From Candidatus Altimarinota bacterium (lineage in GTDB: Bacteria > Patescibacteriota > Gracilibacteria > CAIRYL01), in assembly GCA_965250085.1 (NCBI GenBank), contig OZ252287.1:448001-512000 (forward strand): a DNA stretch of 64,000 nt, given 5' to 3'. Made by a program: the position numbers and the translations under genes. Every line of letters starts with the position of its first letter. Positions within the stretch are counted from its first letter, which is position 1. The notes under the pieces were generated by a model. It was given only the letters and a program-made list of their open reading frames with translations. It was not told the DNA's origin and did no database searches. Below are positions 1,493 through 57,181 of the stretch, piece after piece.

Positions 1493-1509
1493 AGTCATCT
1501 TTGATGGCT

Positions 1510-1668
1510 AATTTTTAATTTTAAAATCTTGTAATTTTTAAAGAATTTCTAAATCCCAATTCTTAAGCACTCAACATTATCTTTTTAGAAATTAAAAATT
1601 AGGATTTATTTATAAAATTAAAAATTGTCTTCGACCTTGAGTTCAGACCGAAAGGAGAATTAAAAATT
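1510..1668. repeat. Gene-less inverted heptamer-array element, AT-rich family A
   Basis: Left arm aatttttaattttaaaatcttgtaatttttaaagaatttctaaat, right arm tttagaaattaaaaattaggatttatttataaaattaaaaatt; matches arms at 10511-10925. Confidence 0.7.
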
Positions 1669-51981: not shown

Positions 51982-52452
51982 CTAAACCATAGCTTTCAGG
52001 AGTTCTGTGAGAGCAAATGCAGTTGCTTTTTGTTGCACTTCTTCTCGATCGCCATCAAATTGCTCATCAAATATTTGGGTCTTATTATTTTTGCAGGAAA
52101 CAGCAAAAATAACCCTGCCGTTTTCAAAGCCCGGTTCAAATTCAGGGCCGGCACAACCAGTGGTTGCTACAGAAACATCAGCAGTGTTTCTCATACGAAT
52201 ATTCTCTGCCATCTGCTCAACAGCTTGGGCAGAATATCCTTCTGTTTTTTCAATTTCACCCGGACTCACTCCCAGTGAGTGAATTTTGGCATCTACATGA
52301 TAAGCAACAATACCACAAATAAACACTTCGGATGATCCAGGTACAGAAGTAAGTGCTGAGGCAATTCGTCCGCCAGTGACACTCTCTGCAACAGCAATTT
52401 TTATTCTTCTCTTTCGAGCTCGTTCAATAATTTTCTGAGCAGTATGATTCAT
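51982..52452 (-). CDS. CinA C-terminal/PncC family nicotinamide-nucleotide amidohydrolase
   Basis: AVAESVTGG..LTSVPGSS..ATTGCAGP..FDGDR; start MNHTAQ just after the tRNA. Confidence 0.9.
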   Translation of the reverse strand: MNHTAQKIIERARKRRIKIAVAESVTGGRIASALTSVPGSSEVFICGIVAYHVDAKIHSLGVSPGEIEKTEGYSAQAVEQMAENIRMRNTADVSVATTGCAGPEFEPGFENGRVIFAVSCKNNKTQIFDEQFDGDREEVQQKATAFALTELLKAMV

Positions 52453-52460
52453 TGGAGAAT

Positions 52461-52535
<75 letters not shown>

Positions 52536-52574
52536 TCAAAATAATAAATCATGTTATAAAGGTGCTTTTCTCTC

Positions 52575-52632
52575 TCGCGAGGTCCTGCCTCGTGAGCTAT
52601 CCGCCACGGCGGACTCGTACCCCGCGTCAAAA
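52575..52632 (-). pseudogene. Degenerate partial copy of the tRNA-fMet 5' half and anticodon arm
   Basis: Minus strand TTTTGACGCGGGGTACGAG[TCCGCCGTGGCGGA]TAGCTCACGAGGCAGGACCTCG vs TTTTGACGCGGGGTAGAGCAGTGGTAGCTCGCGAGGCTCATAACCTCG. Confidence 0.75.
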
Positions 52633-52740
52633 GCCAGGGAAGCATATCAATCTTCCTTTGAAATTGCAAAAATATTTTATCTCATCACCTTTACTCTTTT
52701 TTGTCTAAGAGTACAATACTTTCAGTGCTTTCAAATCGTT

Positions 52741-54132
52741 ATGAAAAAAAAATATCTTTCATTTTTGGGATTTTTCATTTTGCTGAGTTCCACAGTATTT
52801 GCTGACTTTAGTGATGTGAGTGATGACAATATATATAAAGATGCTATCGACTATGTACAAGAACAAGGGATTGTAGACGGTTATGTAGATGGGACGTATA
52901 AGCCAGAAAACACAATAAATCGTGCAGAATTTACAAAAATAGTCATTGAATCTCAATTCGCGGATGAGGTGATAGAATTGTGTATAGAAACAGAGACTGA
53001 GAAGGAGTGGTCATATGTATTTTTTCCAGATGTCCCCAAGAATGAGTGGTTCGGAAAATATATTTGTATTGCAAAAGCCCAAGGGATAATTGATGGATAC
53101 CCAGATGAAACATACAGACCGGAGCAAAATATTTCATTCGTAGAAGCCGCAAAAATCATTGTGAATATTTTTGAATTTGAAACGAGTGACGATGAAATTT
53201 GGTATAAGCCATTTGTAGAAAAATTGGGAGATACAAACGCCATTCCTCTTGCAATTGATAATTTTGAACACCTTGTTTCCAGAGGAGAAATGGCAGAAAT
53301 GATATACCGCCTCAAGGAAAATATTATAGACAAAACTTCTCACACCTATGCTTCTCTCTCTCAAGAGAAAAACATTATTTTTTGTGGAGGAATTAACGAA
53401 ATCAAGTGCCCCGAAGGATTTGTATGTGAATATGAAGATGAGACAACAGGCTCTTCAGGTATATGCAGAGAAGACACCCAGCTTGATCCTTCCTGCAATT
53501 TACTTCCTGATGCAGGCCCGTGTAAGGCAGCTATTTCTAAGTACTATTTTGATATAAGTAGAGACTCATGCACAGAATTCACTTGGGGGGGGTGTGAAGG
53601 AATTATTCCTTTTGAAACATTCGAAACATGTGAACAAATATGTGTAGAGTCACCAGAGCCAGAGCCGCTTGATCCGGCAAAATGTGACTTAATTCCAGAT
53701 GCAGGAGAATGCGATGACACTATTACCAAGTACTATTTTGATGGAGAATCTTCTTGTGGAAGTTTTACCTGGAGTGGATGTAATGGCACTGTCCCTTTTG
53801 AAAGTCAGGAAGAATGTGAAAACACCTGCTTACTTCCAGAAGAGTCTGTTGTCAAAGAGTTTAATATGGTAGCAAAGAAATGGGTGTTTGAACCCAATCA
53901 AATCATTGTGCAAAAAGGTGATCAGGTGCGCCTTACAATTATCAGTGTCGATGTGTCTCATGGTTTTGCGCTTCCGGATTTCGATATCAATGTAGAATTG
54001 AAGCCGGGAGAAAATGTTGTGGTCGAATTTATTGCGGATCAGGCAGGTGACTTTACCTTCTTCTGCTCTGTGTTTTGTGGATCTGGGCACAGCCATATGT
54101 CCGGTACGCTTACGGTAGAAGAGAAGCTGTAA
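52741..54132 (+). CDS. SLH protein with Cys module, two Kunitz/BPTI domains and a C-terminal CuA-type cupredoxin domain
   Basis: Signal peptide, SLH (INRAEFTK, VSRGEMAE), C.LLPDAGPCKA..YYFD..C..FTWGGC..F.T...C...C twice, SHGF..CSVFCGSGHSHM. Confidence 0.88.
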   Translation: MKKKYLSFLGFFILLSSTVFADFSDVSDDNIYKDAIDYVQEQGIVDGYVDGTYKPENTINRAEFTKIVIESQFADEVIELCIETETEKEWSYVFFPDVPKNEWFGKYICIAKAQGIIDGYPDETYRPEQNISFVEAAKIIVNIFEFETSDDEIWYKPFVEKLGDTNAIPLAIDNFEHLVSRGEMAEMIYRLKENIIDKTSHTYASLSQEKNIIFCGGINEIKCPEGFVCEYEDETTGSSGICREDTQLDPSCNLLPDAGPCKAAISKYYFDISRDSCTEFTWGGCEGIIPFETFETCEQICVESPEPEPLDPAKCDLIPDAGECDDTITKYYFDGESSCGSFTWSGCNGTVPFESQEECENTCLLPEESVVKEFNMVAKKWVFEPNQIIVQKGDQVRLTIISVDVSHGFALPDFDINVELKPGENVVVEFIADQAGDFTFFCSVFCGSGHSHMSGTLTVEEKL

Positions 54133-54550: not shown

Positions 54551-55585
54551 ATGACAGAAAAAAAAGATGTCACTGGCACTACTCTCTATTTTTCTGGGCC
54601 AGAAAGCTTTTTGCTCAGAGAGCATGTGCAAAAATATTTTGTTGCTTCTGAAAAGAAATATGGAGAATACAATGTCCTCAAAATGAATCCTGAAGAAAAA
54701 AAATTTGGCGAAATAAAAACAGAGCTCCTTTCCGTCCCATTTTTTAACACGGGAAAAAAAATTGTCTTTCTTGACCCATTTCCTTTGCCCTCTTCTGAAA
54801 AAATGAGTGAAGTGAAGAAAGAAAAATCTGAAAAAATTATTGAGCTCCTTAAAGGCATCCCTGAGGACATTGTGATCATTTGTGTTTCAGAACATCCGGA
54901 TAAGCGAACGAAGGCCTGGAAAGATCTCATAAAAATTGCCCAAAAAGACATTTCTCGGTCTTTTGAACCTTTGAACGAAAGGACTCTTACTCAATGGGTA
55001 TTGCAGCGGGTCTCTGCTAAAGAAGGAAAAATTCTTCCTGCAGCTGCAGAATACCTCTGGCAATATGCTGGAAAAAATTTGTGGGTGCTTGATCAGGAAG
55101 TGCAAAAACTCATCAATTTTTCAGAAGGGAAGCCAATTTCTGAGCGAGATATTGAGATTGTGTGTGATGTAAATTCTGAAACTATCGAATGGGCCCTTTC
55201 AAATGCTTTTTCCACTGGTCAGAGAAAGGAGGTGCTCAAAATATTTCATCGAATGATTGATGCAGGGCAGAGCGCTTATACTCTCCTTTTTCGTGATTTT
55301 GGTTCTCTCCTCAGGCAGTTGCTCCTGGTGAGGCAGGCTCTCGATACTCGCTCTTCTGCGAAAGACATAGGGATGAGTCCTTTTCTCTTTGGAAAAATGA
55401 AAAAAGTTGCGGAGCAGTTTTCACTCTCTCATCTCAAAAATATGCAAGATGGGCTCCTAAAAATAGATGAAGGGAGCAAGACCGGCTTGATCCCCACTTC
55501 CACTGGAAAAGAAGAGCTTCTCATATTTGCCTTAGAAAAATGGATTTATAAATTCTTCAGAAAAAATTTGACAAAAACATTTTAG
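54551..55585 (+). CDS. holA: DNA polymerase III subunit delta
   Basis: YFSGPESFL, SVPFF, DKRTK, QEVQKL, IDEGSKTG. Confidence 0.85.
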   Translation: MTEKKDVTGTTLYFSGPESFLLREHVQKYFVASEKKYGEYNVLKMNPEEKKFGEIKTELLSVPFFNTGKKIVFLDPFPLPSSEKMSEVKKEKSEKIIELLKGIPEDIVIICVSEHPDKRTKAWKDLIKIAQKDISRSFEPLNERTLTQWVLQRVSAKEGKILPAAAEYLWQYAGKNLWVLDQEVQKLINFSEGKPISERDIEIVCDVNSETIEWALSNAFSTGQRKEVLKIFHRMIDAGQSAYTLLFRDFGSLLRQLLLVRQALDTRSSAKDIGMSPFLFGKMKKVAEQFSLSHLKNMQDGLLKIDEGSKTGLIPTSTGKEELLIFALEKWIYKFFRKNLTKTF

Positions 55586-55595
55586 AGACTACAAT
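55568..55595 (+). promoter_or_regulatory. Sigma70 promoter for the arg leader
   Basis: TTGACA-N16-TACAAT overlapping the holA 3' end. Confidence 0.75.
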
Positions 55596-55612
55596 TCAGA
55601 GTGTATTAAGAA

Positions 55613-55669
55613 ATGAGCAATGAATTACTTGAAAAACAACACGGGATGCGATCGGCGAGAAGCTTCTAA
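55613..55669 (+). CDS. Putative leader peptide 1 (MSNELLEKQHGMRSARSF)
   Basis: 18-aa uORF with Arg codons CGA and AGA near its end, overlapping hairpin segment 1. Confidence 0.55.
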   Translation: MSNELLEKQHGMRSARSF

Positions 55670-55719
55670 ATGGAAGCTCCGTTGATGCTGCACTAAAATT
55701 TTACTTCTGCACTTCGTAT

Positions 55720-55746
55720 AGCTTCTGATCTTTCGGAAGTTTTTTT
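55720..55746 (+). terminator. Attenuator terminator 1
   Basis: agcttctga-tctt-tcggaagtt followed by T-tract. Confidence 0.75.
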
Positions 55747-55771
55747 ATTTTTATAAAAATTTTAATTTCAT

Positions 55772-55837
55772 ATGTCTCTCAATCTTGCATCACGACCGCA
55801 GTTTCGACAATTCTGGTATTTTCAGAAGTTCCGGTGA
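55772..55837 (+). CDS. Putative leader peptide 2 (MSLNLASRPQFRQFWYFQKFR)
   Basis: 21-aa uORF with Arg codons CGA, CGA, CGG. Confidence 0.6.
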   Translation: MSLNLASRPQFRQFWYFQKFR

Positions 55838-55865
55838 CGCATCTATAAATTTTTTACATGCATTC

Positions 55866-55899
55866 AAAGACTTCTGAATAAATTCCAGGAGTCTTTTTT
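55866..55899 (+). terminator. Attenuator terminator 2
   Basis: aaagacttctg..caggagtcttt followed by T-tracts, about 20 nt before argG. Confidence 0.8.
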
Positions 55900-55918
55900 A
55901 TTTTTTTATTTTTTTGTC

Positions 55919-57181
55919 ATGAAATCACAAACAACATATCTCAAAATAGCTGATTATGAAGCTAAAAAAGGAGAAGTCAAAACTGTTGCGCTTCTCTACT
56001 CGGGAGGTCTTGATACCTCCATTATCGTCAAGTGGCTGCAAGACGAGTATAAGGTTGATGTATACTGCGTCACATTTGATATTGGTCAAACCGCTGATGA
56101 CCTAGAAGCAATTAAACAAAAAGCCATGAGGCTTGGAGCAAAAGATTGCATCATTGTTGATCATAAAGAAGATTTTGCTAATGGAGTTCTTACGCAAGCC
56201 ATCAAAGCAAATGCTAAGTATCAAAGTGACTATTACCTCTCTTGCCCGCTTGGTCGTGCTAGCATTTCAAAGAAAATGGCTGAAATTTCTAAAAATCTGA
56301 AAGTTGATGCCATTGCACATGGTTGTACCGGCAAGGGAAATGACCAAGCACGCTTTGAGAGTTATCTTCTTGCTTTTCTTCCAAACGTGAAGATTATTGC
56401 CCCTGTCCGCGAATGGTCCATGGGACGTGACGAGCAACTCCAATATGCAAAACAACATGGTATTGATATCGTGCAAAGTGAGACAAAAATTTACTCATAT
56501 GATGAAAATATGTGGGGGAACTGTATAGAAGGCGGTGAAACTGAAGAACTCAATCAAATCCCTCCACTTGATAATATGCTGAGAATTTGTAACACGATTG
56601 AGAACACACCCTGCACTGCGGAATTTGTAAAAATACAATTCAAAAAAGGTGTTCCCATTGCTCTTGATGGAAAAAAAATGGAGCTTTCAGAAATCATCAT
56701 GCAACTTCTCGGCATTGGTGGAAAACATGGCGTGGGGGTACATCATTGTATAGAGGATCGTCTTGTGGGACTCAAGGTACGTGAAGTATATGAGCAGCCT
56801 GCTGCCGAAATACTCGTGAAAGCTCATAAAAGCCTCGAGCAATTGGTCTGTACCCGTGAAGAAAATGAATTCAAAGAAAGTATTGATCAAAAATGGGCAT
56901 ATATGACATACCTCGCACTCTATTATCACCCACTCATGGGCCATTTGAATGCTTATATTGAGAGTGTGAATGAAAAAGTAACTGGTGATGTAACCGTCAA
57001 AATTTTGAAAGGCACATGTGAAGTGGTCTCTCTAGATTCACCACATTCGCTGTTTGATAAAAATCTTTCTACCTTTCTCAAAAACGACGCCTTTAATCAG
57101 AATTGTTCTGCCGGATTTATTTCTATTTACAGCGGGCAAATGAGACTTGCACATCAGGTACAACAAAAAAATAATACATAA
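55919..57181 (+). CDS. argG: Argininosuccinate synthase
   Basis: LYSGGLDTS, AHGCTGKGNDQARFE, YSYDENMWG, EDRLVGLKVREVYE. Confidence 0.97.
   Translation: MKSQTTYLKIADYEAKKGEVKTVALLYSGGLDTSIIVKWLQDEYKVDVYCVTFDIGQTADDLEAIKQKAMRLGAKDCIIVDHKEDFANGVLTQAIKANAKYQSDYYLSCPLGRASISKKMAEISKNLKVDAIAHGCTGKGNDQARFESYLLAFLPNVKIIAPVREWSMGRDEQLQYAKQHGIDIVQSETKIYSYDENMWGNCIEGGETEELNQIPPLDNMLRICNTIENTPCTAEFVKIQFKKGVPIALDGKKMELSEIIMQLLGIGGKHGVGVHHCIEDRLVGLKVREVYEQPAAEILVKAHKSLEQLVCTREENEFKESIDQKWAYMTYLALYYHPLMGHLNAYIESVNEKVTGDVTVKILKGTCEVVSLDSPHSLFDKNLSTFLKNDAFNQNCSAGFISIYSGQMRLAHQVQQKNNT

Follow-up and report, generated by a model that had tools for sequence, protein, structure and literature searches.

The window analysed here, a stretch of 64,000 nucleotides from a Candidatus Altimarinota bacterium (G000:C1:448001-512000 of the single-contig genome G000, 1.37 Mb, 40% GC), contains the arginine genes argG and argH, preceded by a leader region that probably controls them by attenuation. 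Between holA (54551-55585) and argG (55919-57181) lies a 333-nt spacer which holds, in this order, a promoter, unit 1 and unit 2; each unit is about 140 nt long and consists of a short open reading frame (ORF), a hairpin and a T run. A first-pass annotation of the sequence had described a promoter followed by two units of upstream ORF (uORF) and terminator in series, and all of these features are indeed present, at the positions listed here. argH begins 21 nt past argG, and the next gene after argH is convergent.

55568-55595, + strand: sigma-70-type promoter TTGACA-16-TACAAT, 11 of 12 consensus matches, overlapping the 3' end of holA
55613-55669, + strand: leader ORF 1 in an alternative frame, 18 codons, stop TAA, with CGA at 55649 and AGA at 55658
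55620-55685, + strand: leader ORF 1 in the preferred frame, 21 codons, MNYLKNNTGCDRREASKWKLR, stop TGA, with length and K-x-R-TGA ending as in unit 2
55653-55658, + strand: putative regulatory Arg codons CGG-CGA of unit 1, codons 12-13 of the preferred frame, from reading the sequence
55661-55666, + strand: segment 1 of unit 1, AGCTTC, pairing with segment 2 in folding
55672-55678, + strand: segment 2 of unit 1, GGAAGCT, which in folding pairs with segment 1 or else with 55720-55726 (antiterminator)
55720-55728 and 55733-55740, + strand: segments 3 and 4 of unit 1, agcttctga and tcggaagt, from reading the sequence
55720-55751, + strand: intrinsic terminator of unit 1, stem 55720-55741 and T run 55742-55751, from a standard terminator scan and folding
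55772-55837, + strand: leader ORF 2, 21 codons, MSLNLASRPQFRQFWYFQKFR, stop TGA, most like G004 u1 and unit C, two units of the closest relative, treated below
55805-55807, + strand: putative regulatory Arg codon CGA of unit 2, codon 12; a ribosome placed here frees segment 2 in folding
55809-55816, + strand: segment 1 of unit 2, AATTCTGG, pairing in folding weakly with segment 2 or, when ribosome-free, with segment 4
55822-55830, + strand: segment 2 of unit 2, TCAGAAGTT, the antiterminator arm, from folding and covariation
55869-55917, + strand: intrinsic terminator of unit 2, GACTTCTG (55869-55876), CAGGAGTC (55886-55893) and a long T tract up to argG
55919-57181, + strand: argG, argininosuccinate synthase, 420 aa, PF00764 and PF20979
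57203-58495, + strand: argH, argininosuccinate lyase, 430 aa, PF00206 and a weak PF14698 match

The two leaders are alike. In its preferred frame leader ORF 1 has 21 codons, an Arg at codon 12 and a K-x-R-TGA end, and the same is true of leader ORF 2, in which Arg occurs at codons 8, 12 and 21 (CGA, CGA and CGG). Two consecutive Arg at codons 12-13 and the K-x-R-TGA ending are found also in unit C and in G004 u1, the first of two serial units in the closest relative, G004 (same family, different genus; ArgG 74% identical). Because length, Arg position and ending match unit 2, G004 u1 and unit C, the frame that begins at ATG 55620 is likely the translated one, rather than the overlapping frame that begins at ATG 55613. 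The Arg codons of unit 1 had first been read as CGA and AGA; the ORF at 55613-55669 in which these lie does exist, but the ATG 55620 frame with its CGG-CGA pair fits the relatives better. Stall and stop positions in the ATG 55613 frame give the same qualitative folding as those in the ATG 55620 frame. The other sequence elements named by the first-pass annotation were located as described, namely the segments agcttc, ggaagct, agcttctga and tcggaagt of unit 1 and, for unit 2, the Arg codons CGA, CGA and CGG within the 55772-55837 ORF and the four segments at 55809-55893. The hairpin of the unit 2 terminator (55869-55893) has a 9-nt loop; it was missed by the standard scan and recovered by a custom scan and by folding.

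Folding was carried out with a ribosome mask that covered the RNA up to 11 nt beyond the first nucleotide of the codon in the A site. For unit 2, the structure predicted when the ribosome stands at codon 12 was the antiterminator formed by segments 2 and 3 (2:3; -15.2 kcal/mol, versus -13.3 kcal/mol with the terminator forced), and with the ribosome at the stop codon the terminator folded. In the ribosome-free fold of unit 2, segment 1 paired with segment 4 around the 2:3 helix, giving a long hairpin that ends at the U tract and that, in this model, would still terminate transcription. In unit 1 a 7-bp 2:3 helix was the minimum-energy fold (-12.1 kcal/mol) while the RNA end lay at 55726-55738. 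Because the terminator wins once its 3' arm is complete, antitermination at unit 1, if any, would have to be kinetic. The alternative pairings suggested for the two units thus fold as proposed, cleanly in unit 2 and, in unit 1, with an antiterminator that is only transiently favoured. When the same masking was applied to relatives from the candidate phyla radiation (CPR), an Arg stall abolished the terminator in 22 of 37 loci, and a ribosome at the stop codon left it in place in 32 of 37.

We propose, with good though not complete confidence, that argG-argH are subject to ribosome-mediated arginine attenuation by two serial paralogous units, a reading that draws on sequence comparison and modelled folds. 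A ribosome would translate the 21-codon leader as RNA polymerase transcribes ahead of it. When charged tRNA-Arg is ample, the ribosome would reach the TGA and cover segment 2, and the 3:4 hairpin with its U tract would stop transcription. When charged tRNA-Arg is scarce, it would stall at codon 12 or 13 and cover only segment 1, so that the 2:3 antiterminator could form and polymerase could read through. As transcription would arrive at argG-argH only after passing both units, the read-through probabilities would multiply, and low basal expression and a steeper response are to be expected from the serial arrangement. The first-pass annotation had likewise suggested a two-stage attenuator sensing Arg-tRNA, and the suggestion gains support from conserved Arg-codon uORFs, folding, covariation, the lack of a T-box or other Rfam match and searches that found no canonical ArgR.

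The relatives bear on this proposal in several ways. In G004, argG follows argF, and a TTGACA-type promoter and two serial units stand before argF, with the leaders MKNYCTTVRQNRRQNWSFQKVR and MNISHLSTLRRLIRRYWKLQELRRC, each followed by its own terminator; TTGACA-17-TAGAGT promoters, similar to that of the window, precede the G004 units. Since the gene upstream of the G004 tandem is unrelated to holA, the tandem appears to travel with the arg genes. We also considered that terminator 1 might serve mainly as the terminator of holA and rejected this, as the G004 tandem sits behind an unrelated gene. The two units of G000 and the tandem of G004 served to build a covariance model, which was searched in 20 genomes of the order; strong matches occurred solely in G000 (two), G004 (four) and G002 (one), the remaining matches being weak, partial and in the terminator part. 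Within the 1.37-Mb G000 genome the model matched just the two window units at E below 1e-20, and blastn and nhmmer found no further copies there. The extra units of G004 (L203:722-863 and 1505-1642, minus strand, contig C11) are single copies, one in front of a gene for a 209-aa LysE-type translocator and the other in front of an ADI/DDAH-like gene, behind which lies one for a pyridoxal phosphate-dependent enzyme. Because these extra units adjoin, just upstream, the tandem units of argF-argG, they suggest a small attenuator-controlled arginine regulon in G004. The G002 unit, MNIFTSLRRNARRTCHVQGAFLKK, stands before argF.

The four units of G000 and G004 resemble one another beyond shuffled sequences (z 2.9-7.9), the score of unit 1 against unit 2 being reached by 1 of 300 shuffles. 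They belong to two subtypes, type A comprising window unit 2, G004 u1 and unit C, and type B comprising window unit 1, G004 u2 and unit D; the tandem order is B then A in the window and A then B in G004. In an alignment of seven units, 87.3% of the antiterminator cells were paired and three pairs had changed on both sides; the covariation score was reached by 3 of 500 shuffles, and controls slid out of register paired at 31-59%. For the terminator the corresponding figures were 94.6% paired, five pairs changed on both sides and 2 of 500 shuffles, with slid controls that paired far less than the true register. Terminator and antiterminator, whose covariation had been named as a check on the proposal, thus both covary across the seven units, and this set of related sequences lends moderate support to both pairings. 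No closer relative was found in a metagenome scan, in which the best ArgG match was 60% identical. Under a strict tandem criterion (RR or R.R in each uORF), two-uORF tandems occurred solely in G004 among 97 regions; window unit 2 is not counted by this measure because its Arg codons are isolated. L108:1170-1430 (minus strand) and L008, which come from a further genus within the family of G000 and G004, carry a single RRR/RR leader (e.g., MKTLFCNTSARRRSQI) followed by two serial terminator hairpins.

The paired arrangement could be explained by a single sensor, if only one unit responded to arginine and the other, a decaying duplicate, acted as a constitutive partial terminator or an insulator; either unit may be the weak one. 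Unit 1 would qualify by its weak antiterminator and by a terminator that stays in the minimum-energy fold under a stalled ribosome, and unit 2 by having lost one, the second, of the two adjacent Arg that G004 u1 and unit C show; moreover, several relatives have one uORF and then two terminators. Yet both window units keep an open 21-codon frame, the Arg at codon 12 and their paired segments, and the tandem of an A-type with a B-type unit is kept in two genera, in opposite order, which argues for selection on both. We regard a single sensor as unlikely, although it is the rival to attenuation by both units that we take most seriously.

To place the element in a wider context, we compiled an argG upstream set of 96 loci (95 without a duplicate) from 16 of 18 initial loci, two fragments being left out, and 80 named genome contigs. 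Grouping by kinship or record title, independent of the feature, gave 64 CPR or own-class, 28 non-CPR and 3 unlabelled loci. Under a strict criterion (an ATG uORF of 8-45 codons, at least three Arg in a five-codon window and a terminator 30-120 nt downstream), an Arg leader was found in 32 of the 64 CPR or own-class loci and in none of the 28 non-CPR or 3 unlabelled ones. As controls on the same 64 loci, the highest other amino acid, Val, was found at 3, and Arg on the reverse complement at 0. With a looser criterion of at least two Arg, the count rose to 40 of 64, compared with 21 of 64 for Leu. The first Arg lay at codon 10-12 in 25 of the 32 strict positives, and the terminator started 48-87 nt after it. 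Metagenome contigs (55 of 80 usable) were positive in 12 of 35 cases where ArgG was at least 48% identical and in 1 of 20 below that value, Val again coming next (3 of 35). The conserved uORFs and Arg codons that the proposal calls for are therefore present in relatives, before argG or argF. As for CPR loci that have no leader at argG, several have argF directly upstream of argG, and in G004 and G008 the leader stands before argF rather than argG. The first-pass annotation had called the arrangement unusual for the CPR. This did not hold, as it is the commonest one found there, and the Arg leader element appears typical of the group. Separately, three Calditrichia-labelled contigs from outside the CPR (L031, L067 and L114) carry a uORF, MICSKARRRNT (CGG-CGG-CGG), about 340 nt upstream of argG, which may be an Arg leader outside the CPR; of the three, L114 alone has a terminator within the distance used above.

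Across these loci, runs of at least three Arg are written with 12 different codon strings among 27 loci, a locus of 17% GC using AGG-AGA-AGA-AGA. Because the codon strings differ in this way, it would seem to be the amino acid or its tRNA that is conserved, and not the nucleotides. This pattern also bears on the possibility that a nascent peptide senses free arginine and arrests the ribosome near the stop, as do the fungal arginine attenuator peptide and TnaC, so that segment 2 is covered and transcription terminates at high arginine. Such arrest would account for the K-x-R-TGA ending of both window units and of 2 of the 5 units in relatives, and for the region around the stop being among the best-conserved parts of the units. 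However, the CPR peptides share just the Arg run near codons 10-13 and are not otherwise conserved, whereas a conserved arrest peptide is what characterizes the arginine attenuator peptide; their C-termini are diverse (RRRP, RRRSR or RRRRQ before the stop, or long tails). The conserved near-stop nucleotides pair with the upstream leader in the predicted fold, and RNA structure could thus explain their conservation. An arrest peptide fits the CPR-wide Arg-codon pattern poorly and is, in our judgement, very improbable.

We also searched for other regulators of arginine genes. The ArgR C-terminal domain PF02863 was absent from a search of G000 (genome 97% complete) and from all 41 genomes searched in the class, and positive controls gave matches in 8 of 14 genomes. 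The sole PF01316 match in G000 (27-31 bits) lies in the N-terminus of a 351-aa protein of winged helix-turn-helix and Fic/DOC type (L019:625-1680, minus strand; G000:C1:1193013-1194068), in which an ArgR-like winged-helix N-terminus is joined to a Fic/DOC domain; the protein does not qualify as a canonical ArgR. The T-box model RF00230, searched against 55400-56100 with a lenient E cutoff of 10, gave no match, and a search of the same kind recovered a T-box in L041. Scanned against Rfam with that cutoff, the region returned only sub-threshold, chance-level matches (trpB motif, 26.9 bits versus 59); the only match to a leader family in this region was His_leader, on the opposite strand, with 16.4 bits versus a gathering score of 49. 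At gathering level, 14 related loci yielded tRNAs only and four other G000 loci yielded nothing.

The T-box recovered in L041 (860-1141) stands upstream of argG in a CPR bacterium of Uhrbacteria type and is divergent, scoring 66.2 bits (E 3e-14) where the gathering score is 93. GAA-CGC-G is conserved at the expected specifier position in L027, L041 and L088, and the element is probably an Arg T-box missed by the Rfam threshold. Some CPR bacteria (Uhrbacteria-type) thus seem to use a T-box instead of an Arg leader. Francisella loci in the argG upstream set contain a palindrome, which we take to be ARG-box-like. A T-box-like GGTGGTACCG was noticed also in G000 itself, in the leader of a gene for a 1301-aa isoleucyl-tRNA-synthetase-like protein (L025:18-3923, minus strand; G000:C1:673417-677322), which matches no Rfam family at gathering score; the protein has a PF00300 histidine-phosphatase domain inserted in its catalytic domain.

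The Rfam searches speak as well to the idea that the uORFs are incidental and that a protein or small ligand binds the conserved CUUCUG hairpins, in the manner of PyrR, TRAP or a riboswitch. CTTCTG is invariant in 6 of the 7 aligned units, and the PyrR binding-site model matches weakly (21.8 bits), but this match, like all those to Rfam, is far below its gathering score (54 for PyrR), and CTTCTG is limited to the closest relatives. The Arg-codon uORF, by contrast, recurs in the CPR with unrelated leaders and synonymous codons, neither of which an RNA-only element predicts. Like arrest by a nascent peptide, such binding agrees poorly with the Arg codons seen across the CPR, and we give it hardly any credence.

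Several observations weigh against attenuation by two serial units as proposed above. Unit 1 has two overlapping frames that both bear Arg codons, and the choice of the translated one is by comparison. The window leaders are Arg-poor for the family, with two tandem Arg in unit 1 and isolated Arg only in unit 2. The final minimum-energy fold of unit 1 retains the terminator despite the stalled ribosome (-16.2 versus -12.1 kcal/mol), as do those of G004 u2 and unit D, and 15 of the 37 relatives show no switch in the simple folding model. The genomes compared are kin and were chosen by ArgG similarity, so that counts such as 32 of 64 overstate independence. Finally, a LysE-type exporter, which has an Arg leader in G004, is no obvious target for induction by Arg shortage.

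A broader picture joins these findings, and we offer it tentatively, since we hold it to be somewhat less probable than its negation. Peribacteria-like CPR bacteria without ArgR might have a small arginine regulon whose members each carry a copy of one portable module, consisting of promoter, Arg-codon leader and terminator, which would have been duplicated to argGH, argF-argG, the LysE-type transporter and the ADI/DDAH-like enzyme. A type A unit with a strong antiterminator and a type B unit with a weak one, placed in series, might then form an ultrasensitive gate with two thresholds that responds to how far a single tRNA-Arg isoacceptor is charged, and Arg attenuators and Arg T-boxes might be the default arginine control across the CPR.

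The genome offers a suitable background for reading the leaders. TGA is recoded in some Gracilibacteria, and both window leaders end in TGA; recoding is ruled out in G000, since TGA serves as the stop of 144 of 807 long ORFs and the genome has no tRNA whose anticodon is UCA; the genetic code is standard. There are four tRNA-Arg genes, with the anticodons TCT, CCT, TCG and GCG. Apart from CGT, the final codon of unit 1, every Arg codon of the leaders would be read by the product of the single tRNA-Arg(UCG) gene. Shine-Dalgarno-like 4-mers precede 46 of 811 long-ORF starts, compared with 104 of 811 control sites inside genes, and the gene starts of G000, that of argG included, are preceded by T-rich or A/T-rich sequence. 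As Shine-Dalgarno motifs are rarer before genes than inside them, their absence from the leaders and argG is normal for this genome. No argF was found in G000 by tblastn with the ArgF of a relative; the single PF00185 match adjoins a dihydroorotase-like gene and, given this neighbour, was read as pyrB rather than argF. A search of G000 for the arginine deiminase family also gave no match. Because argG and argH were found but no argF, the controlled step is probably the conversion of citrulline to arginine.

A genome-wide screen of G000 for leader peptides was very noisy, and only a candidate before trpE is credible. Leader candidates before an M20 peptidase gene, the gene for IF-3 and an unknown gene of 496 aa were dropped after Pfam searches. 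Directly upstream of trpE stand a candidate Trp leader, MKSSNTKLQAWWITFFVRH, and a terminator (L022; G000:C1:1140149-1140283); simple ribosome-mask folding gave no clear switch for it, and the ORF upstream of it looks to be of TrpR/YerC type on reading its sequence. Elsewhere in the window, a 562-aa ORF (52444-54132, + strand) has an architecture that is odd for a bacterium, with two Kunitz/BPTI domains alongside SLH domains and a domain of cupredoxin/COX2-like type. A tRNA-Met gene on the opposite strand (52461-52535, minus strand) overlaps the 5' end as annotated, and the true start of the ORF therefore probably lies further downstream.

Arginine synthesis is a standard example of control by the ArgR repressor, and to our knowledge arginine is not usually counted among the amino acids whose synthesis is controlled by leader-peptide attenuation, a gap that a conserved Arg leader would fill. 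Gene regulation in the CPR is almost unknown, its members being uncultured and having few transcription factors, and the element would represent a concrete regulatory device for this group that works without Shine-Dalgarno sites. With only argG and argH under its control, the switch would govern the salvage of citrulline to arginine, hinting at what the organism takes up from its surroundings. With the paralogous tandem, the sharpening of a response by attenuators in series could also be measured on a natural example. No leader-peptide attenuator of arginine biosynthesis came up in full-text literature searches, which covered the main text of openly accessible articles. In the available portion of a survey of bacterial regulatory RNAs the word arginine is absent and no Arg biosynthesis leader appears (PMC2965389), and in that of another survey arginine occurs only for the carA motif and an Arg-Leu-Arg resistance-type leader (PMC8632094).

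The window units share with trpL of E. coli and with the his, leu, thr, phe and ilv leaders a short ORF that contains codons for the end product of the operon. They share further with these classical attenuators the four segments that can pair as 1:2, 2:3 and 3:4, an intrinsic terminator before the first structural gene and regulatory codons near codons 10-13 of a peptide of 14-25 codons; in trpL the two Trp codons are at positions 10 and 11 of 14. They differ from them in reading arginine, in belonging to a CPR host without Shine-Dalgarno use and in being two paralogous units in series. They also lack sequence similarity to the Rfam leader models (Trp_leader, His_leader, Leu_leader and Thr_leader), and in unit 2 segment 1 also pairs with segment 4 when ribosome-free. 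An Arg T-box resembles the window units, as interpreted here, in its signal, the charging of tRNA-Arg, in its target genes and in its terminator/antiterminator output, but it binds the tRNA directly and needs no translation. Neither T-box sequence nor Stem I was found at 55400-56100, and the window units span only some 140 nt each.

Two serial sensor units in one leader are known from tandem riboswitches and tandem T-boxes, and the two leader ORFs of mgtCBR in Salmonella reportedly sense different signals. The window units are, unlike those of mgtCBR, paralogues that both carry Arg codons. As far as the available part of the report describes them, the tandem mgtCBR attenuators are otherwise similar to the window in having two short-ORF units in series, both of which must be passed for expression (PMC3641672). 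The nearest published case that we found, going by the accessible part of its description, is the leader of Salmonella speF, in which orf34 has two consecutive Arg codons and ribosome pausing at low arginine alters the mRNA fold and expression; its outputs are Rho-dependent termination, access to the ribosome-binding site and decay by RNase G (PMC6386406). As described there, orf34 differs from the window in that its target is ornithine decarboxylase and not arginine synthesis, in having no intrinsic terminator as output and in being a single unit. The mechanism proposed for argG-argH is thus itself of a known kind, classical ribosome-mediated attenuation, and the twist particular to this lineage lies in the conserved tandem of an A-type with a B-type unit and in the presence of the module at other arginine-related genes.

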